Shown in pieces: positions 13,613 through 41,690 of a DNA stretch of 64,000 nt. This stretch comes from a virus: positions 94,302 through 158,301 of IMG/VR virus record IMGVR_UViG_3300020477_000001; one strand, 5' to 3'. Under the pieces are notes generated by a model. That model was given only the letters and a program-made list of their open reading frames with translations. It made no database searches and was not told where the DNA came from. Position numbers and translations under genes: made by a program. Within the stretch, counting starts at the first letter, position 1; each line of letters opens with the position of its first letter.

Positions 13613-13621
13613 AAAAACTTC

Positions 13622-13653
13622 TTGACCGAAATTAAAAAACCATATAGCATAAT
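13622..13653 (+). promoter_or_regulatory. sigma70-type promoter of the ncRNA/TnpB unit
   Basis: TTGACC-17 bp-TAGCAT, with the ATTAAAAAAC spacer shared by other promoters in this window. Confidence 0.65.
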
Positions 13654-13657
13654 CCCC

Positions 13658-13819
13658 AGTCGCTAACAGACTGCTACGGTGGGTTGCACCGGAAGGGGAG
13701 GGAAACCTCCAAATGCCGAATAGGTATGGTTCGCTTGCGAAGCAGATTCGGAAAGTTCCTAGGGGTCAACGGGGGGAGGATCATCCCGATCCTCCTCCCG
13801 CCCCCAAACCCTACAACAC
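13658..13819 (+). ncRNA. putative tracrRNA/omegaRNA-like scaffold upstream of the TnpB-like gene
   Basis: Hairpins CGGTG-GGTTG-CACCG, GGAGG-GAAA-CCTCC and CCGAAT..TTCG-CTTG-CGAA..ATTCGG, then AGTTCCT (13754-13760, complementary to the repeat core), a long GC stem and terminal CTACAACAC. Confidence 0.65.
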
Positions 13820-13828
13820 ATCTTTAAA

Positions 13829-15337
13829 ATGAAAAAAAAATCTAAACTTCAAAAGGTTGAACAAGAAACTATTCCTGTTAAATACCGAATCTACCCAAAC
13901 CTTAAGCAACGCAAATACCTTGACAGATGCTTTCTTTCCAGCCGAATCGTATGGAACTGGCTGCTAGGAGTACAGAAAGATTATGACCGTGGTCTTACTG
14001 AATGGGTAAAAGAAAAGTATGCCAAAGAGCTACAGAAATTCTGCAAGAAAGAAGGCTTCGAATTAAGCAGTCCATTTGAGCACGAAAAAATAAAAGAATT
14101 AAAAAAAGGAGAAGCGAAAAAATTTCACACGGAAGTCATTCGCCTCAAGAAGGAGGAAGTTTTCCCCTCTGTCTTAGGGATAGAACTCCTTAAAGCCATT
14201 ATTCCTAATGCAGAAGAAGACGAAATCAAGAAGATGATAGTCAACAAAAAGAATCCTTCCGCTTCTAACAAGACTATCAACATCATGGACTTAAAAAGGC
14301 AAGTAAAAAACCTTCGAGAAGATAAACCAATCTTAAACCAAGTCGCATCCCAAGGAATCCATCACGTACCGCTTAACCTAGCTAAAGCTTGGAAGGCGTG
14401 CTACGACAAGAACCGCCCAGATTCCGGTGAGCCTAAATTCAAGAACAAATTCGCGAAGCAGTCATTCACTTTTGACACAGCAAAGCTTCAAGGAAATAAG
14501 TTATTCCTCCCGCCTAAAAGCAAAAACATTTTCATTAAAACAAAAGTCCATCGAGAGATGGAGGGTGAGCAAAAAACAATTACTGTTACTAAAAGCAAAA
14601 CAGGAGAATACTACGCCTCAGTTAACTTTAGGCAAGATGTATTCTTCCCGAAGCCCAAAAGTTTTAGTAAATCGAGCACGGTTGGCATTGACCTAGGAAT
14701 TAAAGATGACTACATCATTATGTCTAACGACATGGGGTCAATCAAAAACCCAAAATTTTTCAAGAAGCATGAGCGCAAAATCGCAATGCTAAATCGAAAA
14801 TTATCGCGCTCCCAGCCGAATAGCAATTCACGCAACAAAGTTCTACACGAGCTTAACCGCGAGTACGAGAAGCTCTCTAAAGCAAGGGAAGATTTTCAGC
14901 ATAAGGTAACACACCAGATCGTAACTAACCCAAACATCAAGGCGGTGGCTGTCGAGGACTTGAATGTGAAGGGCATGACAGCTAAGAACAAACCAAAGGA
15001 GGGCGAAAATGGCCACTACTTACCAAACAATCAGTGCGCCAAACGAGGACAAAACAAAGCCACTCTGGACGCTGGGTTTGGAAGAGTTAGGCAGATGCTT
15101 GACTACAAATGTAAGCGCAATGGCAAAACGTTTGGAAAAGTTGACAGGTTCTTTGCATCCTCCAAAACATGCAACAACTGCGGTCATATCAATAAAGAGC
15201 TCAAAGTTTCCGACCAGTACTGGACCTGCGAAAAATGTGGCGAGCATCACGAGAGGAACTTTAATGCGGCAAATAACGTGCGAGATGAATTTATACGCGC
15301 AAGCAAGCAGAAAAAGAAAACCAAGAACTCGAAATAA
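13829..15337 (+). CDS. tnpB: TnpB/Cas12f-like RNA-guided RuvC protein, RuvC-III D>N
   Basis: KYRIYPN HTH-OrfB start, PKFK, GIDLG (D288), VEDLNVKGM (E376), CNNCG..CEKCG Zn finger, ERNFNAA (N477); no tnpA nearby. Confidence 0.9.
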   Translation: MKKKSKLQKVEQETIPVKYRIYPNLKQRKYLDRCFLSSRIVWNWLLGVQKDYDRGLTEWVKEKYAKELQKFCKKEGFELSSPFEHEKIKELKKGEAKKFHTEVIRLKKEEVFPSVLGIELLKAIIPNAEEDEIKKMIVNKKNPSASNKTINIMDLKRQVKNLREDKPILNQVASQGIHHVPLNLAKAWKACYDKNRPDSGEPKFKNKFAKQSFTFDTAKLQGNKLFLPPKSKNIFIKTKVHREMEGEQKTITVTKSKTGEYYASVNFRQDVFFPKPKSFSKSSTVGIDLGIKDDYIIMSNDMGSIKNPKFFKKHERKIAMLNRKLSRSQPNSNSRNKVLHELNREYEKLSKAREDFQHKVTHQIVTNPNIKAVAVEDLNVKGMTAKNKPKEGENGHYLPNNQCAKRGQNKATLDAGFGRVRQMLDYKCKRNGKTFGKVDRFFASSKTCNNCGHINKELKVSDQYWTCEKCGEHHERNFNAANNVRDEFIRASKQKKKTKNSK

Positions 15338-16441: not shown

Positions 16442-16876
16442 ATGAGGAAAAACAAGATTTCATTAGTAAGCGGCGGATTTGATCCAATTCACGTTGGACA
16501 CATAGAACTCTTTAACAGGGCTAGAGAAATCTCTGACGGGCTATTCGTGATCTTGAATAGTGATAGGTTCCTCACAGAAAAGAAGGGCAAGCCCTTCATG
16601 CAGCAACCAGAAAGAAAAGTCATTATTGAAAACTTACAGATGGTTGACTTGGTTATACCTTCAATAGACGAAGACCAAACGGTTTGTGCTACCCTGCGAA
16701 AACTAGCTAGCCTCAAGGACGCAGTTGACTCTGAATTATATTTCTGCAATGGTGGAGACAGGACGGACGGCGAGAACACGCCAGAACACAAAGTCTGCGA
16801 AGAAGTCGGAATACACAACGTTTATGGATTAGGTGAAAAAATCCAAAGCAGTAGTTGGCTTACGAAAGGGAACTGA
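16442..16876 (+). CDS. cytidylyltransferase-family protein
   Basis: SGGFDPIHVGH (HxGH), NGGDR, KIQSSS. Confidence 0.85.
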   Translation: MRKNKISLVSGGFDPIHVGHIELFNRAREISDGLFVILNSDRFLTEKKGKPFMQQPERKVIIENLQMVDLVIPSIDEDQTVCATLRKLASLKDAVDSELYFCNGGDRTDGENTPEHKVCEEVGIHNVYGLGEKIQSSSWLTKGN

Positions 16877-16898
16877 AACACATAAAATCACCGTCGCG

Positions 16899-18205: not shown

Positions 18206-19129
18206 ATGTACAATTTGTGCTGCATATCAAATTCATTAGCCAAAGAGGGTCACAAGTTTCAGACCATGACTTGGGCTAGGTTCTCCAAGTTACCCCGCGA
18301 AGAAGCTATTGCAATCGTTTCTGCTCGCACTCTTAACAATCTGAAAGTTACGCGCAAGATTCTTGAGCAGTGTGCAGAGCATGGCTGGGGCTATCGCGTT
18401 AGCTCTGCTTTATTTCCACTTCTTACTTACGATGTAGCAGAACTCAAAATTCAAGACTACCCAGACTGGATTGACATACAAGCTGCATTTGCAGACTGCA
18501 ATATGTTCATCAATGACAATCGTATCCGCATCTCATGTCATCCAGATCAGTTCAATGTTCTTGCAAGCTTGGGTAAAGCGCAGGTAGAAAAGACTATCAA
18601 AGAACTCAATCATCATGGTTGGTTCATGGATATGCTTGGTGCTCCTCGCGACTATCGCGCACCCATCAACATTCATGTCAACAACACCAAAGGCGAGCCT
18701 TCAGAAATTGCTGACCGTTTTATGCTCAACCTTTACAAGTGCGACCAATCTGTACGCTCACGACTAGTCATAGAGAACGAAGACAAAGGCATCTGGACTC
18801 CAGCGTTACTTGTCGAGCATTTCACCACATTGCCCATTACTTACGACAACCTACACCACAAATGCTTACCCGATGGCCTCACAGAGGATGAAGCCTATCG
18901 CTTGTGCTATAACACATGGCAAGATAACGGTTACTTCAAACCACTGTTTCATTACTCAGAGTCTCACCCAGACAAAAACAATCCACGTAGCCATGCCGAC
19001 ACACCCACCGAGATACCGCTGGACGGCGGACATTCTTTCCCTGTTGACTACGACATAGAACTCAAGTCAAAAGATGACGCCATTAAAGAGATACAAAGAT
19101 TAGAACTGAAGGGGTTAATAAATGGATAA
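18206..19129 (+). CDS. uvsE: UV DNA damage endonuclease
   Basis: YRVSSALFP, ISCHPDQFNVL, ENEDK, DNLHH, HYSES, SHAD, ELKSKD. Confidence 0.9.
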   Translation: MYNLCCISNSLAKEGHKFQTMTWARFSKLPREEAIAIVSARTLNNLKVTRKILEQCAEHGWGYRVSSALFPLLTYDVAELKIQDYPDWIDIQAAFADCNMFINDNRIRISCHPDQFNVLASLGKAQVEKTIKELNHHGWFMDMLGAPRDYRAPINIHVNNTKGEPSEIADRFMLNLYKCDQSVRSRLVIENEDKGIWTPALLVEHFTTLPITYDNLHHKCLPDGLTEDEAYRLCYNTWQDNGYFKPLFHYSESHPDKNNPRSHADTPTEIPLDGGHSFPVDYDIELKSKDDAIKEIQRLELKGLING

Positions 19130-20039: not shown

Positions 20040-20207
20040 TGATAACGCCCCCGAAGATCATAGGTTTTATATGGGTAGCATTCTTAACACTGTTTTACTT
20101 CTTCGCCTCAATAGCTGTTTTTATTGTTACTTCAATCGCTAATATTTTTAAAAAAGAATAAATAAAAAACCTTGACTAAAGTTAAAAAACTCTCTATTAT
20201 ATTACCC

Positions 20208-21089
20208 ATGAAGAGAATTGATACTTATTTCGCAAAAGAGTACGAGGCAGACACACCCACTGCCTCTATGCGTAAGTTGCGCCCAGTGGCTGAAGCAGCT
20301 AGTGCTGCTGGTTACGCAAACATCTTGAAGACATCCTCCAGCGAAGGCGTTAGCGACAAGCTAAAAAAAATTCACAATGCAGATTACGTGGAAGCCTTCT
20401 CTAACGGTACTTATCCGCTCAGCGAAAGCAATGGATGGGGCTGGAGCAAAGAGATTAGGGACGGCGTTTTCAGAATTAACACAGGGCAGCTTGACGCTGC
20501 TAAAGCTGCGTTAAGCAACGGCATTGCAGCAAATGTAGCGCAGGGGTTTCACCATGCTGGAATCGAAAGAGGCTGCGGTTATTGTACCTTCAATGGGTTA
20601 GCACTAGTCGCTAATGAATACAAGACCAAGAAAGTATTCGTTTTAGACTGCGATGAGCATGGAGGCAATGGTACGGCTGAGTTTACCAACATACTGGACA
20701 ACTTATCGCAGGTAACCATCAACGGCTCTAATTTCGGAACCGAAGAGAACCCCCGCAGCCGATGCATTACTCTTCCTCGAATCACTAACCGATTTGAGCT
20801 TTACGAAGATGCACTGGAAGAAGGCTTCTCTATAATGGATAGGTTCGAGCCCGACTTGGTTATCTACCAAGCTGGTGCTGATCCTCACATTGACGATCCC
20901 TTGGGCTCTCTGGGTATGACAACCGAACAAATGTACAACAGAGACAAGAAAGTATTTACGAAGCTCAAAGCTTCAAATATACCGACAATGTTCGTACTGG
21001 CGGGGGGCTATCAAACCCCGATTGAGGAAAAACTTGTACCGCTGCACTTGAACACCTTCAAGGCTGCTCACGAAGTATACAACAATTAA
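20208..21089 (+). CDS. histone deacetylase/acetylpolyamine amidohydrolase-family protein
   Basis: GFHHAG, GYCTFN, LDCDEHGGNGT, QAGADPH.DDPLG, GGY; start moved to the leaderless ATG. Confidence 0.9.
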   Translation: MKRIDTYFAKEYEADTPTASMRKLRPVAEAASAAGYANILKTSSSEGVSDKLKKIHNADYVEAFSNGTYPLSESNGWGWSKEIRDGVFRINTGQLDAAKAALSNGIAANVAQGFHHAGIERGCGYCTFNGLALVANEYKTKKVFVLDCDEHGGNGTAEFTNILDNLSQVTINGSNFGTEENPRSRCITLPRITNRFELYEDALEEGFSIMDRFEPDLVIYQAGADPHIDDPLGSLGMTTEQMYNRDKKVFTKLKASNIPTMFVLAGGYQTPIEEKLVPLHLNTFKAAHEVYNN

Positions 21090-21134
21090 AGGAACAACAA
21101 CACAGCACCAAAGATACTATCTCCGTAGCATACT

Positions 21135-22738: not shown

Positions 22739-23692
22739 ATGAGTAGCTACCTAGAAGAAAAGTCGTCGGAAGATTTATATTTTAATGAAATTTCAAGATA
22801 CGATTTAATCTCCTCGGATCGAGAAAAAGAGTTAGCAAAAAAAATAAAAAAAGGCGGAAGAACTGGCAAAAAAGCCCTTGAAGAATTAGTTAATGCTAAT
22901 TTAAGATTAGTCGTAAAGATAGCTGGAGAGTTCAAAGGCTTTGGGTTGGATTCTGGCGATTTAATCAACGAGGGAAACCTCGGATTGATGAGGGCCGCTG
23001 AAAAGTATGATGGCCGCGAAGGCGTTAAGTTTTCAACATATTCCGCGTATTGGATAAGGCAAAGTATCTACAGAGCCCTCTCGAATAAGAGCAGAACAAT
23101 TAGGCTTCCCGTTCATGTTTGCGCTGCTAATTCTAAAATAATTAAATTTATTTCAAAATACCAAGAATCCAACAATGGAAAAAAGCCTTCAGTTAAGCAG
23201 ATAGCGAAAGCCACCAACGCAACAGAAAGATTGGTGTCGGATGTAATAAATGGTGGAGTGACCAACGTAAACTCTCTAGACAGAGAAATCGGAACTGATG
23301 ACAGCGGCTCTAAAGAGACCCTAGGGAACATAATTGAGGACCAAAACGCTGAATCCCCCGACCAAATCTGGAAAAACGTGGAAGATGTTAGTATTCTATT
23401 AAAATTGATACAAAAATTAAATAATAGAGAAAGATACATAATTTGCAATAGATATGGAATAGGAACCAAGACCCCAAAAACTCTAGAAGAAATTGGGGAA
23501 CACTTCGGCGTTACTAGGGAAAGAATAAGGCAGGTACAAAAAGTAGCAATGATGAAGTTAAAAAACTACATGGATAAGTATTATAGATACAAGCCAGAGG
23601 TTGAGGATCATTATGTTGAAGGCCGAAGATTTGTAGCAAGGGTTAAAAGAGAAGAAAAAGCCAGAGAAAAGAAAAAAAAGGTTAAAAAATAG
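22739..23692 (+). CDS. RpoD/RpoS-like sigma-70 factor
   Basis: ANLRLVVKIA, DLINEGNLGLMRAAEKYD, FSTYSAYWIRQ, TLEEIG..FGVTRERIRQ. Confidence 0.92.
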   Translation: MSSYLEEKSSEDLYFNEISRYDLISSDREKELAKKIKKGGRTGKKALEELVNANLRLVVKIAGEFKGFGLDSGDLINEGNLGLMRAAEKYDGREGVKFSTYSAYWIRQSIYRALSNKSRTIRLPVHVCAANSKIIKFISKYQESNNGKKPSVKQIAKATNATERLVSDVINGGVTNVNSLDREIGTDDSGSKETLGNIIEDQNAESPDQIWKNVEDVSILLKLIQKLNNRERYIICNRYGIGTKTPKTLEEIGEHFGVTRERIRQVQKVAMMKLKNYMDKYYRYKPEVEDHYVEGRRFVARVKREEKAREKKKKVKK

Positions 23693-24514: not shown

Positions 24515-25381
24515 TGCAAAAGCCAGACAACAAAATGAAGCGCTGGCTAAACTCTCAGACCAAAGATTTAAAAAAAATTAATTTTAATTCTCTGGTAAAT
24601 TCATTCAAAGACAAGTTTAAGGTCAGTATCAACGATGCTCGTATGTACGTGATGCAATGGGACCACGACAGAAACAAGCATTAAACCGCCGTATTAGATG
24701 CTTGACATATATTAAAAAACTCCTTATCATATATCTACAGACATACCTTAAGATATATATAGGAACAAACAATGGACTTAATATTTGCGGCAATAGTGAT
24801 ATACTTCTTCTGCTTTGCTTTTAAGCAGCTAGTCAAGGATTTGTAAATCGAGGGGGAGCTACAACACAACAAATTGTGAAAACAATAGCCCTGTTTTTAC
24901 GAGCTTTTTACACATTTTTTAAAACACTCACAGTGAACTACAACACTATAAGCTAGTATGGAACTAATAAACACAATAAAGCATTTCAAAAGAATAAAAT
25001 AAAATATTGAAGTGTATTAAAATGGGTTAATGTGGGGTGCATATTATATATATATCCGTCAAGCATTAAATTTAAAAACTATTCACATATTTATTAACAC
25101 TGAAACCACGTCAAGCAAAAACAACAAAAAACAATAAAAAACTTATTAATATTTTCTAAGTCAAGAAAAAACAAACAAAAACTTAAAAAATTATTATTGA
25201 CTATATAGCAAATATATGGGCTTAAAACCAAGAAAAGAAGGAGAAGCAAAAAGAATAGCAACATACATAATATTAATCATATATGGAATTGTTATACTTA
25301 TAGTTTATCTATTAAATAAATTATTTTCTTGACACAGATAAATGGAATTAAAACACAATAAAGAATAGAGGGTTTTTTTTG

Positions 25382-25482: not shown

Positions 25483-25577
25483 TCCAAAGGGATTTTTTTT
25501 ATTTTTTTTAATTCTTATAATAGGAATTATTTTTTTCTTGACAAGTAAATAATGTTTCTTATTCTTATTATGCTTAA

Positions 25578-25795
25578 GGAGCTACACCACGTTATTAACA
25601 CCAACGTACACGGAACTACACCACCCATTTGCCGACGATTGATTTTTAAGGAACTAAAGCACGGATTCGAACTCACGTCTGGAACTACGACACCCATTTA
25701 CCAAGGAGCCGCAACACGTCGAATGCAGTGGTATATTTGTGAACGCAATCGAGCCAAATAATAGGAACTAAATACACGAGGTCGGGAGTTCAGAA
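25578..25795 (+). repeat. mini-array of 13-nt cores GGARCT-NNNN-CAC
   Basis: Cores at 25578, 25612, 25650, 25681, 25705 and 25764, separated by unique sequence. Confidence 0.7.
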
Positions 25796-25800
25796 AAGCC

Positions 25801-25829
25801 TTGACTCATCTTAAAAAACTCTTCATAAT
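25801..25829 (+). promoter_or_regulatory. promoter of the CRISPR array
   Basis: TTGACT-catcttaaaaaactctt(17)-CATAAT; same class as the tnpB-unit promoter. Confidence 0.7.
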
Positions 25830-25925
25830 AGTCCCCAGATTAAGAAACTGATCTTTGACATAGGCACTGCAACACACGAGGCCAAAGACATTCAAGGGAC
25901 TACAACACAACATTATGGTATTCCT

Positions 25926-26476
25926 TAGCAATTTAAGGGACTGCAACACAGTAAGGCGATTATAACATCGCGCTCGACGGTTCGCACTGGTACTAATTTA
26001 AGGGACTGCAACACTGCAACCATGCTAACTAACGTGGTTACACAGCTTCGCACTGGTAGCAATTTAAGGGACTGCAACACTGTTACACACATCGCTGCGA
26101 TGAAGCGGCGGCTTCGCACTGGTACAGATTTTAGGGACTGCAACACCGTATCAGAACGAGATATCGTCCCGCCTTGGGCTTCGCACTGGTAGCAATTTAA
26201 GGGACTGCAACACTTAGTCGAACCGCATAACGTCGAGTGTCTGCTTCGCACTGATAGCAATTTAAGGGACTGCAACACAATGAGGCAGATAATGGAAGGG
26301 GTAGCTAGCTTCGCACTGATAGCAATTTAAGGGACTGCAACACAAAACTGCACCAACAGGAAGCGGAATCACAGTTTTGCACTGGTACTAATTTAAGGGA
26401 CTGCAACACAAGGGGTGACGTAGTGGAAGCGACCACATAAGCTTCGCACTGGTACAGATTTTAGGGACAACAACAC
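25926..26476 (+). CRISPR. CRISPR array: 8 full repeats plus 1 partial, 36 bp (GCTTCGCACTGGTAGCAATTTAAGGGACTGCAACAC), 8 spacers of 29-31 bp, no adjacent cas genes
   Basis: Repeats start at 25926 (partial), 25979, 26045, 26111, 26178, 26243, 26308, 26374, 26441; spacers are unique, lengths 29,30,30,31,29,29,30,31. Confidence 0.92.
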
Positions 26477-26495
26477 AGTAAAGAACCCTACGTAC

Positions 26496-27358
26496 ATATT
26501 TGTGAATGATTTTTGGACAAATAAAGGAACAACAACACTGAATCTCTAGGCGATATTTGTGAATGATTTTAAGGCAAATAAAGGGAACTACAACACTCTG
26601 TTAAAGTCCGTCCAACACGAGGCGGCGAGAATTGATGCCGATCAAAATACTTAATTATTGATTGACTAATTTTTTTGTCGCTCATTTGTGAACGTCAAAG
26701 AGGCAAATAATATAGGGGAATTAAATTAGATATTTTAGATTAATAGGGACTAATTAAACACGATGCTCAATCCCAATATTGTTAATTTATGAATGATTTT
26801 TTGCCAAATAAGGGTTATTTAACATAAGGGAATTTCGTATACAAGAAAAATGTTGCCCCGGAGAAAACACCCCCTTATAAGAAATATATTAAAGGAACTA
26901 AAACACAACAAAAGTGATGAAGAATTTAATTTTAATTATTATTATTTTAATTATTACTGGTTGTTATACAGCCAAGGAAAGAGTAATGCCTCTTGGTCCC
27001 CATGATGATAGCTATGGTAAGAATTGGGTAAGTAATTAAGGAACTGTAACACCAAATCCAGCATGGCGTTTAGATATTTTGGGAACTAAAACACGGGTAT
27101 AGCTCATTTGAAATAGGAACTAGAACACATGTGGTGCGCCATTATATTTGTGAACGCGATTTTTGCAAATAAAGGAACTACAACACCAGCGGTTTCAGAA
27201 GCTATCTGTGAACGCGATTTTTGCAAATAAAGGAACTACAACACCCGTCATGGAATTATAACACTAACTCCTCAGATGGAACTACAACACGTTGAGATAC
27301 TGCTTTCGCGGGAGCTATCTGTGAACACAATTTTTGCAAATATAGGGAACTACAACAC
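26496..27358 (+). repeat. second repeat family (~43 bp) ATATTTGTGAAYG..TTTT.GCAAATAAAGGAACTACAACAC
   Basis: Copies at 26496-26538, 26553-26596, 27144-27186, 27203-27244, 27316-27358 (also 25733-25777; decayed copies near 26684 and 26785). Confidence 0.75.
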
Positions 27359-27510
27359 GACGGGAACTCACGACGGAGAGTTAATCAAGGAACAACAACA
27401 CGAAAACTTTTTCTGTATTCTTGATCTTGTAATGGAACTACAACACTCAAGGGCGGCTCATTTTAATTTAAAATAAAAAAGGGAACTACGACACTTGCTA
27501 TTATTAATTG
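27040..27510 (+). repeat. mini-array of 13-nt cores
   Basis: Cores at 27040, 27082, 27116, 27174, 27232, 27252, 27278, 27346, 27389, 27434, 27482. Confidence 0.75.
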
Positions 27511-27589
27511 TATCTTTAATTAGTGTAATTATTATTGTCTATAAGTTTTTATTGACTGTAATTAAATTGCTCTATATAAAAGGATACAC

Positions 27590-27826
27590 ATGAAAAAAAA
27601 GAAACTATCCCCGCAAGCCCAAATATACGAGAAGGCTTGGAACGACGTAGTGTCCGAAATGAGTGACCATAAAAGAAATATTATTATTAATAATTTTACT
27701 GTTGTCAGTGGTCATCATGTATATGAGAATAAATATGATCAAAGGGTAGCAGATGAAGCAGCTAAGGAAGCCCGTATACGAGGTGACCAACAAATAGAAG
27801 CACTGTTTCCAACTGGCAAGTATTAA
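27590..27826 (+). CDS. hypothetical protein
   Basis: ORF track; upstream TTGACT promoter. Confidence 0.5.
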   Translation: MKKKKLSPQAQIYEKAWNDVVSEMSDHKRNIIINNFTVVSGHHVYENKYDQRVADEAAKEARIRGDQQIEALFPTGKY

Positions 27827-27827
27827 A

Positions 27828-27925
27828 GGTACTACAACACGAGCGGGCACTACAGTGGTAGGAACAACAACACAGTCCCCTGCTATAATCTATGGAACTA
27901 AAGCACGAGTGCATATAGTAGAAAA
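27828..27925 (+). repeat. three-unit mini-array, 33-bp period (13-nt core plus 20-nt spacer)
   Basis: Cores at 27828, 27861 and 27894, directly after a stop codon. Confidence 0.75.
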
Positions 27926-27977
27926 AAATAAAAAAAAATAATTGACTTAAATTAAAAAAAACTTCATACTGGTCGCC

Positions 27978-28220
27978 ATGAAGAGAAAAGGTTCTGGCAA
28001 AACAAAGGGAGCGACCAGCTTCGTACAAGTGACACTGGGAGAGCTCAACCGCGTACTCAAAGAGGGTGCAGTGGTTGTGGTCAGTCGCAAGTACGCCGAG
28101 CAACTGGAGCTCGATTCTAAGCCCATGTATTCTAATTACAAGAATCTTGAGGCCCACTCAAACCAAATCGATGTCAAGATCGATGAACCGGAGGACACAA
28201 TTGATTTCAAAGTAGAATAA
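27978..28220 (+). CDS. hypothetical protein
   Basis: ORF track; leaderless promoter architecture. Confidence 0.6.
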   Translation: MKRKGSGKTKGATSFVQVTLGELNRVLKEGAVVVVSRKYAEQLELDSKPMYSNYKNLEAHSNQIDVKIDEPEDTIDFKVE

Positions 28221-28293
28221 TGGAATAACAACACGAACGAAAAGACTTCATAAAAGTCTTGACCTAACTTAAAAAACTATATAATATATCCCT

Positions 28294-29253
28294 ATGACGA
28301 ACGAACGAACTATCCCCAACCCTTTCGAGGGTATCATTGGCCAAAAGAAGGCTAAGAAACAGATAAACTTTTACAGGCGAGGCTACAATGCCACAGGTAT
28401 TCTTCCTCACCTATTGTTTGTTGCTCCGAAAGGATGCGGCAAGACCATGCTGGCTAAGGCTGTTAAAGACACTCTTATGTCCAGAGAGAACCCAGAGAAA
28501 GCTAAGAAGTTTCTGGAGATTAACTGCTCTACGCTTCGCAACGTCAAGCAGTTCTTTAATCAAATCATGATTCCTCATGTTCAACACGAGGAAGTCACAA
28601 TCTTATTCGATGAATCCTCTGAGATTCCTCACGATGTTTCGATGGCACTGCTTACGTGCTTAAACCCGAACAAGCATAATCGTAACGAGTTCTCTTACGA
28701 GGACTATACGGTAGAGATTGACTTCTCGCGACACACTTTCATGTTCGCCACCACCGAGGTGCAGACCATGTTCCACGCTCTTATTGACCGATGCAAGCGC
28801 ATCGATCTACAGGAGTACTCTTTAAAGCAACTCGGACAGATTCTCAAGGTTAACCTTGAGGGTATCGAGTTCGAGGAGGGTCTGATGCCCGACATCGCCT
28901 CTACTCTTAGGGGCAATGCTCGTAAAGCAGTTCAGACTGCCAACGACATTTCCTCGTACATGGCGGCGGAGGAGCGAGGTTACTTCACTCGCAAGGACTG
29001 GAACCTGTTCAAAGATGAGCTAGGAATCGAGCCACTCGGATTGTCTCCGATTGAGATTCAACTCTTAGAGATTCTCAACGACAAACCAGAGTGCAGCTTG
29101 ACCTACCTGTCAGCCAAGACTGGCATGACCAAGGCGGCAGTACAGAGGGACATTGAGATGTACCTTCTCAAGAACGATCTAATGGAGATCGGCACTGGCG
29201 GACGCAAGATCACCAACAATGGACGTGAGACCTTGGAGGTCATCAATGGATAA
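28294..29253 (+). CDS. ruvB: Holliday junction branch migration ATPase, RuvB-like
   Basis: IIGQ, HLLFVAPKGCGKT, LFDE, FATTE, LIDR, RGNARKA, C-terminal winged helix E.YL..GRKIT. Confidence 0.8.
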   Translation: MTNERTIPNPFEGIIGQKKAKKQINFYRRGYNATGILPHLLFVAPKGCGKTMLAKAVKDTLMSRENPEKAKKFLEINCSTLRNVKQFFNQIMIPHVQHEEVTILFDESSEIPHDVSMALLTCLNPNKHNRNEFSYEDYTVEIDFSRHTFMFATTEVQTMFHALIDRCKRIDLQEYSLKQLGQILKVNLEGIEFEEGLMPDIASTLRGNARKAVQTANDISSYMAAEERGYFTRKDWNLFKDELGIEPLGLSPIEIQLLEILNDKPECSLTYLSAKTGMTKAAVQRDIEMYLLKNDLMEIGTGGRKITNNGRETLEVING

Positions 29254-30332
29254 AGTTACTGCGGAACAGCTTAAGAGAGAGCCATCGGCTCCCTTCGATA
29301 GAATCGTTCGTCATATGGAGGATTTCCTCGCTGCGCGGATGTGCAGCGAGGAGTCCTTCAACCAAGTGAAGCGTAACACCTACAAGTACACAGACTGCGG
29401 CGCTTGGATTGACGAGGACGAGAACGGTATTACTGTAGGAAGTATTGTCGAAGGAGCAGACTACGGAACCTCGACTTACGTTTTAATCTACCCATTCAAG
29501 ATTCAAGAATTCTGGGATGCATTGAATGAAGTAGAGATGGAGGCTAAACAAATCTGGGAGGAGGTCAATGGAGAAGAACAATGACATAGACTTCGCAATA
29601 TTAAACCAAAAAAGATATGAAAAATATAAAGGAATTAATTTAAGTACTTGTTTCTTAGTACATGAATCAGAAAAGGGACACATGAAGGACTGGACTTGTA
29701 TCACGCGGAATGATGACTTCTTTAGAGTAAACATTATCGCAGGTATGGTCTCAATGATGAGAGGAGAAACAGAGTACGACATTACGGGACCAGCAACAAA
29801 TATACTAAACCCCGTACTAGGATTACAGAACAAAGAAGATTTGGAAAAATGTAAATTCTCTGATATAAAGAAGTTTATGAAATGGAGAATCAATAAAGAT
29901 AACTATATAGAATAAGATTATGAATAAGAAAGATACAAATACATATGTTGTTAAGATGACCGAAACCAGCAACGGAGTGGTCGTAGACTCAGTGCAGCAA
30001 CTCGTACAAGTGCTCGGTGTAGATCGTGAGAAGTATAAGACTATCGACAAGCGCGACTTCACCAGCAAGCATCTCAATACTGTTACTAAATTCACAGCGC
30101 GTTAATGAAGAAGTCTCACTGGAAAGAAGGTCTTGAAATACCCAAGCCACCAAAGGGAATCACTCACGCCCAAATAAAGTGTGGCAAGAAGAAGTCTACC
30201 GTAACTATAAACGACTTCGACACTTTCCGAGGGGTAGAGGGAATGGTGCGCTGGGGTAAGCAAAAGAAGAACAGTAAAACAATTGAATTAATAGGAGAAG
30301 AATTCTTTTGGGACGGATTTAAAGTAGAATAG
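29246..30332 (+). CDS. run of four small hypothetical genes (29246-29584, 29568-29915, 29920-30105, 30105-30332)
   Basis: ORF track; overlapping starts and stops. Confidence 0.5.
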
Positions 30333-30400
30333 GAACTACAACACAACATAATATTCGCGACTCGCAAGGGAACTACAACACGTTCAAGGACTTGGTATAA
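30332..30400 (+). repeat. two 13-nt cores GGAACTACAACAC at a stop codon
   Basis: 30332-30344 and 30369-30381, 24-nt spacer. Confidence 0.7.
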
Positions 30401-30906
30401 AAATTTCCTCCCAAACCGTGGGCTATCCCAACCCCACACCGGAGTCGATGGAATAGAGGCGGAAGAGAGCTCCGCACTAGCGATGGGGATATCGCTACGT
30501 TTAACACCATCGGCTCCTTGACTTCTTTCAAATAACCTCGTATACTAATACCAGCAAACCAAATAATACAATTTTATCTTTCCTGTATTATTGAAAGTTC
30601 AAACTTCTTAATGTCTCTATGCAATTTAGGGACAACTTCTGCCCTTCATCGGCAAACAAAAATGAATCAAATAACACCAAATAAAAGCGAACCATATACG
30701 AACAAATAATAGACAAATAAAATAGATATAAGAATATAAGAATATAAAATTTGGCGGGTGACCCTATAATAATAGAACAACAATTGTTAATAACTTTTTA
30801 ATAATGTTAATAATTTTTTCTTGACTTAAACATACAGAAAAACGGAATAACAATTATTTTTTTCTTGACAAGCAAAATCGTGTAGAAAATTTTTTATATT
30901 TTTTTG

Positions 30907-39282: not shown

Positions 39283-41690
39283 ATGACAAACGAAGAAGCA
39301 ATGGAAATAGTATTAGAGGCAGCAAAACACAGGGCGAGTATTCTCCCACCTCAAAACGATACAGGAAAGAAAATCCTAGCAGCGTCTCGGCAACTACAAG
39401 CCCGATTACAATGGCAAAAGCTCGCCGCGTATGACGCAAAGTACGCATCACATTATTTAATATTGGAGGACTAAATGAAGTATCAAGGAAACATCAAAAT
39501 TATAGTAGAAGGCGAGGACAATTATTCTCGCGCAACCGAACACTGGCTTCACTCAATCGTGCAAGAGGGTGTTGGGGAGCAATGCGACGAAACAGGGCTA
39601 TCTATCGTTGGCGCATGGTGCGTTGATGTTAAAAAATTGGAGGACTAATAATGAAAGAAGATAATATAACTTATTTAGAAATGGCGCGAATAGCAATGGC
39701 TACAATCCCAGAAGATTTAGCCGAAGGAATGGACATATCCGACGATGAACTAATTCGCTTACGCGATCAACTACATATTTATTTAGATTGGGAGGTTAAA
39801 GAATGAAGGTAAAAGATATTATTGAAACACTAAAGAAGAACTATAATCCAGAAGATAGTCTGGTTGTAGCTACATGGGACAAAGAACAGTTTGCTCCCTT
39901 ACTGGAGGAAGATGACGATTGGGCCGAGATTGCTCAATCCTGTATGGACGAAGTGGATTGGGCTGATATAAGCCAAGACATTATCGAACACATTCAATCA
40001 CACCAAGGCACTCATTACGGAGATAGTATCTTTGAAGGAGTCGAGGAATAGTTCTTGACTTATTAAACCAAGTCTTTATAATCAAACGCATGATGACCAA
40101 AGAAGAATGCAGAGAACAAATTCAAGAGGATATACTTACATTTATGGATGATAGGTTTGTGGAAGATGGTTGGGATGCCGAGTTCTTGAAAGACAATCTT
40201 TGCCAAATCGTAGTTGATAACTTTAAGAAATTGGAGGACTAAATGAAAACATACGAAGTAGAATTCAAATCAACAACCTATCGCACCTACCATGTGGAGG
40301 CTCCAAGCAAAAAGTTTGCAGAGGAGGCAGCGATAGAAGAATTACAAATGGATACCGAAGTTAGTAACGCTTGGGTTGAGAACGCAGAAGTTTCCGCTAT
40401 CACCGCAGATGTGGATGTGTGTGGTAACAAATTGGAGGATTAAATGAAACTAAACATAGAAATTAGAACTCACGACAAGGATCAAATACCTTCTATAATC
40501 GAGCGTATCGCTAACGATGTAGAGTACGATTTGTTGGCATATAAAAACAACGGTAGAGCGATCATCAGCGCAGACATTGGAGTAGTTGTTGATGGTGATT
40601 TAGTTGGGCATTATAGAATGGAGGAGGACTAAATGAGACGACTAAAAAAAGCCAAAGAAAACCTTTCGCGTACTGAAAGACTACACCGCATTGTTACCCG
40701 TGGATTCTTCAAGGGCGACGGACACCAACGTAAAGGTCGAACCATTAGAATGTGGCCTAGCTTTCACGAAAACGACGAAAATGTTGAATTAGTTTTTGAT
40801 ATTCTTTCTGAAGAACTAGACAAATTATTAAAAGAATAATCCTTGACTTATTAACCTAAATCTCTATAATCAAACGCATGACGAAAGAAAAACAAGCTAT
40901 ATTAGAAGTATTGGAATACTATGCTAATAATGAAGCGAACCTAACTTCTGAATTCGCAAGAGAACACATCGCAGACGCTATTATGGAAGCTCAGAAACAA
41001 GTATGGACTGAAGCATTACTCGACGTAGGCATTGAACTAACAACAAAGGAGGAGGACTAAATGAAATACAATCACGCATACGATATCGCCTTCTCTCTTG
41101 AGTCTAATGATGAATATGGAGAGGATGTAACACCAGATATGTTGAGGACGGCATTACTTAACAGAATCAAAGACTTGGATAGAGCAAACGAATGGGGAGA
41201 GATTCACGCGAACTCTGTACCTTTTGATACATACGAAGTGGAGGAGGATTAAATTATGAAAACAGAACTCATTGAAGTTTACATTTATTACTACGAAAAT
41301 ACTCCCTACGATGAGGTGGAAGCCTACCTCGCAGAGAAGCAGAAGGTCAATGGCAAAAAATGGGCTGACGAAGCATGGGATTTGTACGCTAAATGGAGCA
41401 GCGGAAAATTAGGAGATTAAATTATGGGATACAAGATACTAGACGTTAAAGCAGACATTCACGAAGATGTTGAGAAGTATATGGACTCTTGCATTAACGG
41501 GAACGAGATCAACCCGATATTGGGTCAGACCATTTTGGAGGATATGTGTGACATTGTAGACAAACACTTTGAGAAGATAGAAAGGTAATTAATAATGTTA
41601 GAATTAATTCACGGAGGGGCTATTGTTGTATCACTAATGATAGTCGCGTACATACAAGACTTGAACGACGAAGAAGAAGAAGGCAAATAG
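39283..41690 (+). CDS. chain of about 12 small acidic hypothetical genes joined by GGAGGAYTAAATG-type junctions
   Basis: ORF track (39283-39474, 39803-40051, 40243-40443, 40444-40632, 40633-40839, 40878-41060, 41061-41252) plus sub-60-aa ORFs in between. Confidence 0.6.

Follow-up and report, generated by a model that had tools for sequence, protein, structure and literature searches.

The stretch studied here, called the window, comprises 64,000 nucleotides of the virus record IMGVR_UViG_3300020477_000001 (IMG/VR; positions 94,302 to 158,301) and makes up the last 64 kb of a phage genome of 158,301 bp, which is complete and bears direct terminal repeats. It holds clusters of a 13-nt core sequence on both sides of a canonical array of short palindromic repeats that are clustered and regularly interspaced (CRISPR). 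We propose that these clusters are themselves arrays, made of truncated repeat-spacer units that serve a TnpB-derived effector protein and its scaffold RNA, both encoded in the same window. We put the probability of this reading at roughly two in three (0.68). The proposal draws on the motif and its strand, the boundary of its conservation, the spacing of the units, their conservation and turnover, the covariation of core and scaffold, and a change in the active site of the effector.

When two mismatches are tolerated, the window contains the core GGAACTACAACAC 43 times and only on the + strand; shuffles that preserve dinucleotides gave 1.21 matches on average and never more than 5. A scan of both strands against shuffled controls, of the kind suggested in an earlier note on this DNA, confirms the enrichment. 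The whole genome contains 45 matches on the + strand and 2 on the - strand, about 40 of which fall between 16869 and 30381 of the window. Allowing for one or two changes, the core corresponds to the 3'-terminal 13 nt of the 36-nt repeat in the true array at 25914-26476; related loci have bare cores and full repeats intermixed in a single tract. Besides the nine repeats of the true array, the phage carries some 30-40 truncated units, located 1.5-16 kb downstream of the effector gene. The elements concerned, all on the + strand, are:

13650 to 13818, + strand: structured scaffold RNA resembling a trans-activating CRISPR RNA (tracrRNA) or omegaRNA, with its own predicted sigma-70-type promoter and the anti-repeat AGTTCC at 13754-13759.
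13829 to 15337, + strand: TnpB-derived effector of 502 aa, in which the RuvC-III motif DRD has become ERN.
16869 to 16881, + strand: single core that shares bases with the stop codon of the gene before it.
21091 to 21103, + strand: single core, 1 nt past the stop of a deacetylase-like gene and 31 nt before the next ATG.
24855 to 24946, + strand: two isolated cores, at 24855 and 24934, lying downstream of a promoter at 24702.
25344 to 25356, + strand: single core, GGAATTAAAACAC.
25578 to 25776, + strand: mini-array 1, with cores at 25578, 25612, 25650 and 25681 and a weaker one (3 mismatches) at 25705.
25734 to 25776, + strand: hairpin-type unit at the end of mini-array 1, with a 14-nt core variant at 25763-25776.
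25863 to 25908, + strand: two bare cores, 33 bp apart, between the promoter at 25801-25829 and the canonical array.
25914 to 26476, + strand: canonical CRISPR array of nine 36-nt repeats ending in GGGACTGCAACAC, with unique spacers of ~30 nt; the first repeat is truncated at its 5' end.
26497 to 26596, + strand: two hairpin-type units, each a hairpin TATTTGTGAA...CAAATA followed by AAGG and a core, with guides of 15-17 nt.
26894 to 26906, + strand: single core, 10 nt upstream of a 40-codon open reading frame (ORF).
27040 to 27494, + strand: mini-array 2, with 11 cores at 27040, 27082, 27116, 27174, 27232, 27252, 27278, 27346, 27389, 27434 and 27482.
27828 to 27906, + strand: mini-array 3, with cores at 27828, 27861 and 27894 and two 20-nt guides, starting 1 nt past the stop of a 78-aa ORF (27590-27826).
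28222 to 28234, + strand: single core, 1 nt past the stop of the ORF at 27978-28220.
30332 to 30381, + strand: two perfect cores (30332, 30369) separated by a 24-nt gap, the first overlapping the stop of the ORF at 30105-30332.

The gaps of mini-array 1 measure 21, 25, 18 and 11 nt, and those of mini-array 2 range from 7 to 55 nt. The earlier note had described three clusters of bare cores separated by unique sequence. Their coordinates stand, but four of the units are not bare: the cores at 27174, 27232 and 27346 of mini-array 2 (hairpin-type units at 27145-27186, 27203-27244 and 27316-27358, three of its eleven) and the last unit of mini-array 1 follow a conserved hairpin of ~29 nt. The inter-core sequence is also unique only in part, the remainder being conserved AT-rich linker rather than spacer. 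In the third cluster the 33-bp period is exact and both quoted 20-nt spacers are present as given. Among the isolated cores listed in the note, those at 24855, 24934, 25344 and 26894 hold up, while the one at 24960 is weak (3 mismatches). Cores beyond its range were found at 16869, 21091, 26526, 26584, 28222, 30332 and 30369.

Promoter-like sites on the + strand precede these tracts at 24702, 25382, 25452, 25538, 25801, 27942 and 28259, and the first core of mini-array 1 lies ~5-10 nt beyond the expected start of the promoter at 25538-25565. A phage-wide promoter family, consisting of CTTGAC, 17 nt containing AAAAAAC and a TATAAT-like hexamer, also occurs near 13614 and elsewhere, and heads many short transcription units of the non-coding tract. 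It may be read by the four-region sigma-70 homologue of the phage (22739-23692).

To place the cores in a comparative frame, metagenomes were scanned with the canonical-repeat pattern, which returned 46 loci, to which the loci L009 and L010 were added. All related loci are marine or estuarine metagenome contigs, and the window stretch itself is present in DNA runs of about a dozen marine studies. In the 29 loci with at least three cores, 322 cores lie on one strand and a single one on the opposite strand. The effector is encoded in 13 loci, always on the strand of the cores. An effector-based search of IMG/VR for related loci found nothing, and a two-core pattern scan of the same database was discarded, since most of its matches were false positives, namely tandem repeats of 15 bp in coding sequence.

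Dense short repeats in a 3-kb AT-rich non-coding tract, close to a sigma-factor gene, recall an origin or control region, and the cores might then be double-stranded DNA sites: iterons, operators or promoter elements for the phage sigma factor. We find this hardly credible. Strand use is absolute over 14 kb and across the 29 loci, no partner element stands at a fixed distance on either side of the core, and positions 3-5 vary by the G.U wobble type. The core forms the end of a CRISPR repeat and changes in step with the anti-repeat of an RNA, the tract has a separate conserved TTGAC-N17-TATAAT promoter family, and most inter-core sequences are not conserved.

The anatomy of the units was profiled across loci with 196 non-redundant units classed as bare by regular expression, some of which are misclassified full repeats. 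The two-mismatch scan inflates the information inside the core but not in its flanks. Information is confined to the 13 nt: base 13 has 2.4 bits and base 14 only 0.05. Outside the core there is a weak TTTAA-like preference upstream and no partner element downstream. Between a core and the bare core that follows it, the most common gap is 20 nt (18-22 nt), with a tail to ~38 nt (29 loci). The 14 nt after bare cores have a G+C content of 43.5%, close to the 41.5% of canonical spacers, compared with 29% in the upstream linkers. The earlier note had proposed minimal arrays of a type V-like kind, with a 13-nt handle and a spacer of about 20 nt. This boundary, the 20-nt mode and the spacer-like G+C content support that proposal at the level of sequence, within limits: some of the supposed spacers are only 7-13 nt long, some units carry a hairpin module, and the effector is a TnpB derivative, probably nuclease-impaired, rather than a classical Cas12. 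By the usual definition of a CRISPR array, with repeats of ~23-50 nt and unique spacers of similar length, only 25914-26476 qualifies; the 13-nt units, whose gaps of 7-55 nt have a mode of 20 nt, do not. What they do share with the truncated repeat-spacer unit known from type V-K systems is the ~13 bp of the 3' end of a full repeat.

If such units arise by truncation, they could also be functionless stumps, left by deletions of full repeats in a recombining array. Repeats of intermediate length do exist (25914, and in L154, L157 and L141), and deletions from repeat to repeat occur in nature. The gradient from full to partial repeat to core that the earlier note had noticed is real, since the first repeat of the array (25914-25949) retains only the 3' 24 nt of the consensus and the cores at 25863 and 25896, 33 bp apart, lead into it. 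However, as classed, bare units outnumber full repeats (220 versus 124). The 13 nt are nearly intact, a 20-nt spacing is preferred, and GGAAC is favoured in bare cores where full repeats have GGGAC. The units also recur in synteny, with conserved guides, in lineages with effectors of ~40% identity. Decay is hence a distinctly unlikely origin of the cores.

The protein that would use these units carries the Pfam domains Cas12f1-like_TNB, OrfB_IS605 and HTH_OrfB_IS605, and its best relatives in the PDB are TnpB, Cas12n and TranC (9jfo/9jfq). It is full length, with one D-to-N and one D-to-E change: the aspartate of RuvC-I and the glutamate of RuvC-II are retained, but the third RuvC aspartate is an asparagine. 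ERN is present in all ten members of the lineage (this protein and P0001-P0009), whereas eight cyanobacterial TnpBs retain DRD. As the third aspartate is replaced throughout the lineage, the complex probably binds DNA without cutting it. The complete genome encodes no Cas1, Cas2 or TniQ, nor any candidate of the size of Cas9, Cas12a or Cas13; its large ORFs are structural and replication proteins without Cas domains. A resemblance of the repeat to those of Cas13a, Cas12a or Cas9 II-C systems was dropped, as the genome has no such effector.

The effector is preceded by the scaffold RNA, which is ~170 nt long, folds with a z-score of -3.5 and ends in CTACAACAC, 10 nt ahead of the effector ATG. 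It is kept upstream of the effector in every locus that holds the gene (11 further loci, 7 distinct versions). Its consensus fold has 39 pairs, 15 of them with compensatory changes, and an Rfam search gave no match, even at E up to 1. Bases 1-6 of the core (GGAACU) are complementary to AGUUCC of the scaffold, while bases 7-13 (ACAACAC) equal the scaffold's own 3' end, which fits the published idea that the CRISPR RNA (crRNA) and tracrRNA of type V arose by splitting of an omegaRNA. Downstream, the final CAACAC runs into ATCTTTAAAATG, the leader and start codon of the effector (13819-13830).

Core and scaffold change together between lineages. In those with an AGTCCC scaffold (L157/L169/L141 and L173/L165), 47 of 48 cores read GGGACT and the remaining one GGGGCT; the few units of these five loci that are genuinely bare or truncated follow the same pattern. 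Taking together all loci with few GGA-type cores, 85 of 87 cores carry G at base 3. In AGTTCC lineages the cores are a mix of GGAAC, GGGAC, GGAAT and GGAGC, in which bare cores favour the perfectly pairing GGAAC and full repeats GGGAC. At core positions 3-5, transitions compatible with G.U wobble outnumber other changes by 114 to 19. Pairing of the retained part of the repeat with the tracrRNA-like scaffold thus has comparative support, from few independent lineages. For the 5' half of the repeat, the partners predicted in the scaffold by RNAduplex differ between lineages.

A second structured element lies directly after the core at 30369. This GC-rich, RNA-like stretch (30382-30520; minimum free energy -44.8, z = -2.5) has a counterpart in L133, with 89% conservation over 127 nt. 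Within it are AGCTCC, complementary to the GGAGCT variant of the core, and, near its 3' end, TTTAACAC, as in the scaffold ends of some relatives. Its overall similarity to the effector scaffold barely reaches beyond the scores of shuffled sequence. The element may be another helper RNA, divergent from the first.

A handle present in many copies could serve well as a sponge, and the literature discusses phage-borne solitary repeat units that possibly inhibit cognate effectors. The cores could accordingly be decoys of the RNA anti-CRISPR type that soak up a type V effector or tracrRNA of the host. Here, however, the phage brings its own cognate effector and scaffold, which the 13 effector-bearing related loci likewise encode on the same strand, and the handle covaries with the phage's own scaffold. 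None of the 46 metagenome matches is a host locus with this repeat, and the loci checked (L007 and L009) look phage-like. Among these loci, no host CRISPR-Cas system turned up whose repeat the cores would mimic, as expected of such a decoy, and we consider this explanation very improbable.

The relatives also show how the units behave over time. Homologues of the effector share 95, 71 and 68% identity with it, plus six at ~39-43%. L009, a TARA scaffold with an effector of 38% identity, has the same architecture: 20-21 cores, all on the effector strand, a canonical array immediately after the effector gene, bare cores flanking it at gaps of 13-50 nt, and hairpin-type units. At short range, the 1.5-kb contig L145 is collinear with 26490-27540 of the window. 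Hairpins, linkers and cores are ~95-100% identical between the two, while the sequence after the cores has been replaced and whole core-plus-guide units have been gained or lost. One bare-core guide of L145, AAGGGGAGACGTAGC, resembles the first 14-15 nt of the canonical spacer at 26410 of the window (13 of 14 aligned positions identical). A natural variant among contigs from DNA runs lacks exactly one core-plus-guide unit, ~42-46 nt from 27053, and other such contigs hold arrays with different spacers or fewer repeats. The comparison with relatives proposed in the earlier note therefore came out as it had anticipated: the core persists and the sequence after its final CAC mostly varies, as seen in L145 and in the small share of guides (4 of 42) with relatives elsewhere. 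Its view of the units as crRNA-sized is further backed by this replacement of guides, by the covariation of handle and scaffold, by the occurrence of one guide behind both a full repeat and a bare core, and by the Cas12k precedent discussed below.

Seven cores lie on a stop codon or within 1-2 nt of one (16869, 21091, 27040, 27828, 28222, 30332 and genome position 83808). The last of these is on the minus strand, in sense with its gene, and behind several cores comes the leader of another gene. TnpB is able to process its own transcript. The core could thus be a form of RNA punctuation, that is, a recognition or cleavage site at which the effector-scaffold complex or a host RNase cuts or stabilises transcripts between cistrons, with no guide involved. 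We regard this as unlikely. Most cores stand in tandem in non-coding tracts, where there is nothing to punctuate, and the motif ends every repeat of a true array. The downstream sequence is spacer-like in its G+C content and is swapped as a module, and some guides are conserved over deep divergence.

Several small ORFs and hairpins lie among the units. The 40-codon ORF at 26917-27039 (MKNLILIIIILIITGC...), which has a lipoprotein-like signal and Cys, begins 10 nt after the core at 26894 and stops 1 nt before the first core of mini-array 2; a similar ORF start, ATGAAGAATTTAA, follows the core at 16869. Two further small ORFs (25552-25761 and 27276-27476) were rejected as genes, as cores fall in different frames, L145 has non-triplet indels and L131, by our own reading of its sequence, has stops. 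Hairpin modules at 26684 and 26784 (26684-26830) are followed by the degenerate core-like sequences GGGGAATTAAATTAG and GGGTTATTTAACAT, which are nevertheless ~100% conserved in L145. Between the effector and the guide tract lie genes for a UvdE-type UV endonuclease (18206-19129) and a histone-deacetylase-family protein (20172-21089), which are unusual cargo for a phage; ThyX and proline dehydrogenase are found at the corresponding place in relatives (L007).

For four of the 42 guides of the window, related sequences can be recognised at other loci. Those at 25591 and 25625 are common to distant relatives, that at 26539 is conserved with eight variants across loci, and that at 27874, the second of mini-array 3, has relatives in L139, L172 and L174. 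A few guides persist across effectors that are only ~40% identical. Nine guide families contain at least three distinct variants. In the largest, the shared part is limited to the first 9 nt, CCAYTTRCC; on the opposite strand all nine variants read x-hydrophobic-[VILM]-G-K-W, and Ser is written TCA in one phage and AGC in another. The TGAATCTC-YAR-GCGATW family reads [YN]-R-L-[EK]-[IN] on the opposite strand, where Leu is CTA, TTG, CTG or TTA and one variant has Ser. In the GTTATYAAYACN... family, variation falls mostly on every third base (V-I-N-T-...). Such codon-like variation in three families points to protein-coding targets that differ between hosts or rivals. This pattern is only suggestive that the conserved guides track such targets; as the sequences are few, a single fixed target, read with wobble, would account just as well for a 9-nt seed that varies by Y/R, and TldR proteins function with guides of 9 nt. 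By our own reading of the sequence, the conserved guide stretches are not phage ORFs, being bracketed by stop codons. Guides occur in both orientations relative to the inferred coding sense, which argues for DNA rather than messenger RNA as the target. In L131 (reverse strand, ~2913), a bare-core guide starts with ATCTTTAAAATA. Its likeness to the effector leader may hint at autoregulation, although the match is AT-rich and weak.

Searches of the phage's own genome stayed close to chance. When the 30 nt after each core were compared with it by blastn-short, one notable match emerged (19/19), between 21109-21127 and 40016-40034 on the minus strand. Because it starts 5 nt into the supposed guide, this match is not anchored in a seed. 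The stretch 21109-21127 is the leader of the gene after the core at 21091, and the E value is ~1e-5 for that query. Matches of 16-mers with at most two mismatches numbered 10, versus 6.6 in shuffles; 12-nt seeds gave 2 versus 1.05, and seeds of 10-13 nt were at shuffle level throughout. No phage ORF of at least 80 aa contains the peptide motifs that the conserved guides imply.

Beyond the phage itself, a search of cultured phages with the array gave only chance-level pieces, even at an E threshold of 10. In GTDB contigs the 21-mer GTTATTAACACCAACGTACAC had 0 matches, and the 17-mer TGAATCTCTAGGCGATA had 9, in unrelated taxa and with no gene in common. Among IMG/VR 18-mers, two guides had one match each, both in short ORFs, and the first guide of mini-array 3 had none. 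A codon-degenerate search for V-I-N-T-[ND]-[VI]-[HY] matched 2 of 401 genomes in the class of G001 (labelled an alphaproteobacterium, PS1 clade), where controls matched 11 times, and none of 101 from the class to which G002 belongs (labelled a cyanobacterium).

Several observations weigh against guide units as an explanation of the cores. For none of the guides did searches of the phage genome, cultured phages, IMG/VR or GTDB genomes yield a protospacer, so no target-adjacent motif (TAM) was deduced. Several gaps (7, 11 and 13 nt) are short even for guides of the TldR kind, and several single cores precede the leader or start codon of the next gene with no obvious guide. In this phage, the effector is 10 kb away from the units, and its single D-to-N change is no proof of lost cleavage. 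The covariation of core and scaffold rests on about two independent AGTCCC lineages and is partly confounded with unit type, since full repeats have GGGAC in all lineages. In some lineages, the alifold consensus also permits the anti-repeat to pair in cis with a 5' AGGG. RNA coverage consists of contigs from two RNA libraries (26554-26762 and 27776-28300), which may hold DNA and show no ends; it was not used.

With these points in mind, truncated repeat-spacer units would work as follows. The units would be transcribed on the + strand, either from the sigma-70-type promoters of the tract or as the 3' tail of small genes, each combining the 3'-terminal 13 nt of a CRISPR repeat with a guide of ~10-20 nt. 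GGAACU of the handle would pair with AGUUCC of the scaffold RNA encoded just upstream of the effector, and ACAACAC, matching the scaffold 3' end, would stand where the guide of an omegaRNA-type molecule starts. This two-RNA complex would load the effector with a guide. Judging from the altered active site, the loaded complex would probably bind DNA that matches the guide and adjoins a TAM, leave it uncut, and may thereby block or steer the transcription or replication of genes of the host or of rival elements. Transcription and processing of the units, their loading into the protein, binding without cleavage and the nature of the target are thus steps that we infer from this arrangement.

A broader scenario is possible, though we advance it tentatively. 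A widespread family of marine phages may run a natural, multiplexed form of CRISPR interference, in which one small, cut-disabled TnpB-derived protein and one helper RNA would be combined with dozens of minimal guides, encoded in the genome at a density of up to one per 33 bp. Part of these would be hard-wired and track protein-coding genes of hosts or rivals, the rest would turn over fast, and many genes could be silenced or redirected during infection. If the units are indeed loaded, this would be the densest natural encoding of guide RNAs that we found described, at 33 bp per guide. It would do without a full repeat, possibly without any processing enzyme beyond trimming, and would serve an RNA-guided DNA binder of 502 aa. 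It would also represent a concrete intermediate between omegaRNA, the tracrRNA-crRNA pair and minimal handles, and suggest a compact design for multiplexed guide arrays. The targets would reveal which functions of hosts or rivals are switched off by abundant ocean phages.

Cas12k units, TldR, TranC and dCas12f-sigmaE offer the nearest comparisons, and none of them is described with dozens of tandem units bearing a 13-nt handle. TldRs are TnpB-derived proteins with a damaged RuvC domain, often phage-borne, that bind DNA and control transcription with fixed guides of 9-16 nt; they are commonly truncated at the C-terminus (10.1101/2023.11.30.569447; PMC13622181). The phage effector resembles them, by its sequence, as a TnpB homologue with mutated RuvC catalytic residues, but is full length. 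TldR has one guide, in cis to an omegaRNA-type scaffold by the gene, and the preprint PMC13622181 mentions no CRISPR array or tracrRNA. Here, instead of a single cis guide next to the gene, there is a separate upstream scaffold with dozens of trans units and an array.

TranC systems (Jin et al. 2025, as described in 10.64898/2026.03.27.714800) combine TnpB-like effectors and CRISPR arrays with a tracrRNA from a split omegaRNA, the guide-adjacent part of which resides in the repeat; some are phage-borne and lack cas1/cas2. The phage system likewise has a TnpB-like effector, a CRISPR array and a separate scaffold RNA that pairs with the repeat. However, TranC arrays have repeats of 32-38 bp and their effectors are active defence nucleases with an intact RuvC site, whereas the third catalytic aspartate is an asparagine here; neither arrays of bare 13-nt handles nor a RuvC-impaired effector is described there.

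Like the phage effector, dCas12f is a miniature protein of the type V family. dCas12f-sigmaE and CRISPR-linked dCas12f, which do not cleave, act as RNA-guided transcription regulators with matches of 13-14 bp, and one dCas12f guide RNA (gRNA) addresses up to seven loci (Hoffmann et al., Nature 2026, PMC13472631). A sigma-factor gene (22739-23692) is also found nearby in the phage. In contrast, the dCas12f systems are chromosomal in Bacteroidetes, with an extracytoplasmic function (ECF) sigma factor in the operon and single chimeric gRNAs, while the phage sigma factor is of the four-region sigma-70 type and lies 7 kb away. Viruses are further known to carry mini-CRISPR arrays and solitary repeats without adaptation genes, directed against rivals or used for regulation (PMC11656645; Shmakov et al. 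10.1101/2023.03.03.530964). These keep full-length or near full-length repeats that match those of the host, whereas the units described here are reduced to 13 nt and fit an effector and scaffold encoded by the phage.

Cas12k elements provide the precedent that comes closest. Elements of this kind (type V-K Tn7-CRISPR) carry one truncated repeat-spacer unit, in which ~13 bp of the repeat 3' end, the part that pairs with the tracrRNA, are followed by a 17-bp spacer (Hsieh & Peters, 10.1101/2021.02.06.429022). The truncated units match tRNA attachment (att) sites exactly and thus have a fixed target (10.1101/2021.02.06.429022). As in the Cas12k att-crRNA, the phage units join ~13 bp of the repeat 3' end to a short spacer (17 bp there, a mode of 20 here), lie outside or at the edge of a normal array, and would work with a type V-family effector that is predicted not to cut, on targets that are hard-wired rather than adaptive. 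Unlike Cas12k elements, with their one unit each, the phage has ~30-40, partly in tandem at a 33-bp period. Its effector is a small TnpB derivative of 502 aa, without TniQ or other Tn7 machinery and without the association with tnsB, tnsC and tniQ that marks Cas12k elements, and its carrier is a phage of the lytic type. If our proposal is correct, the single-unit device of Cas12k and the single-guide mode of TldR would here be extended to a regulatory network with many targets in lytic marine phages.

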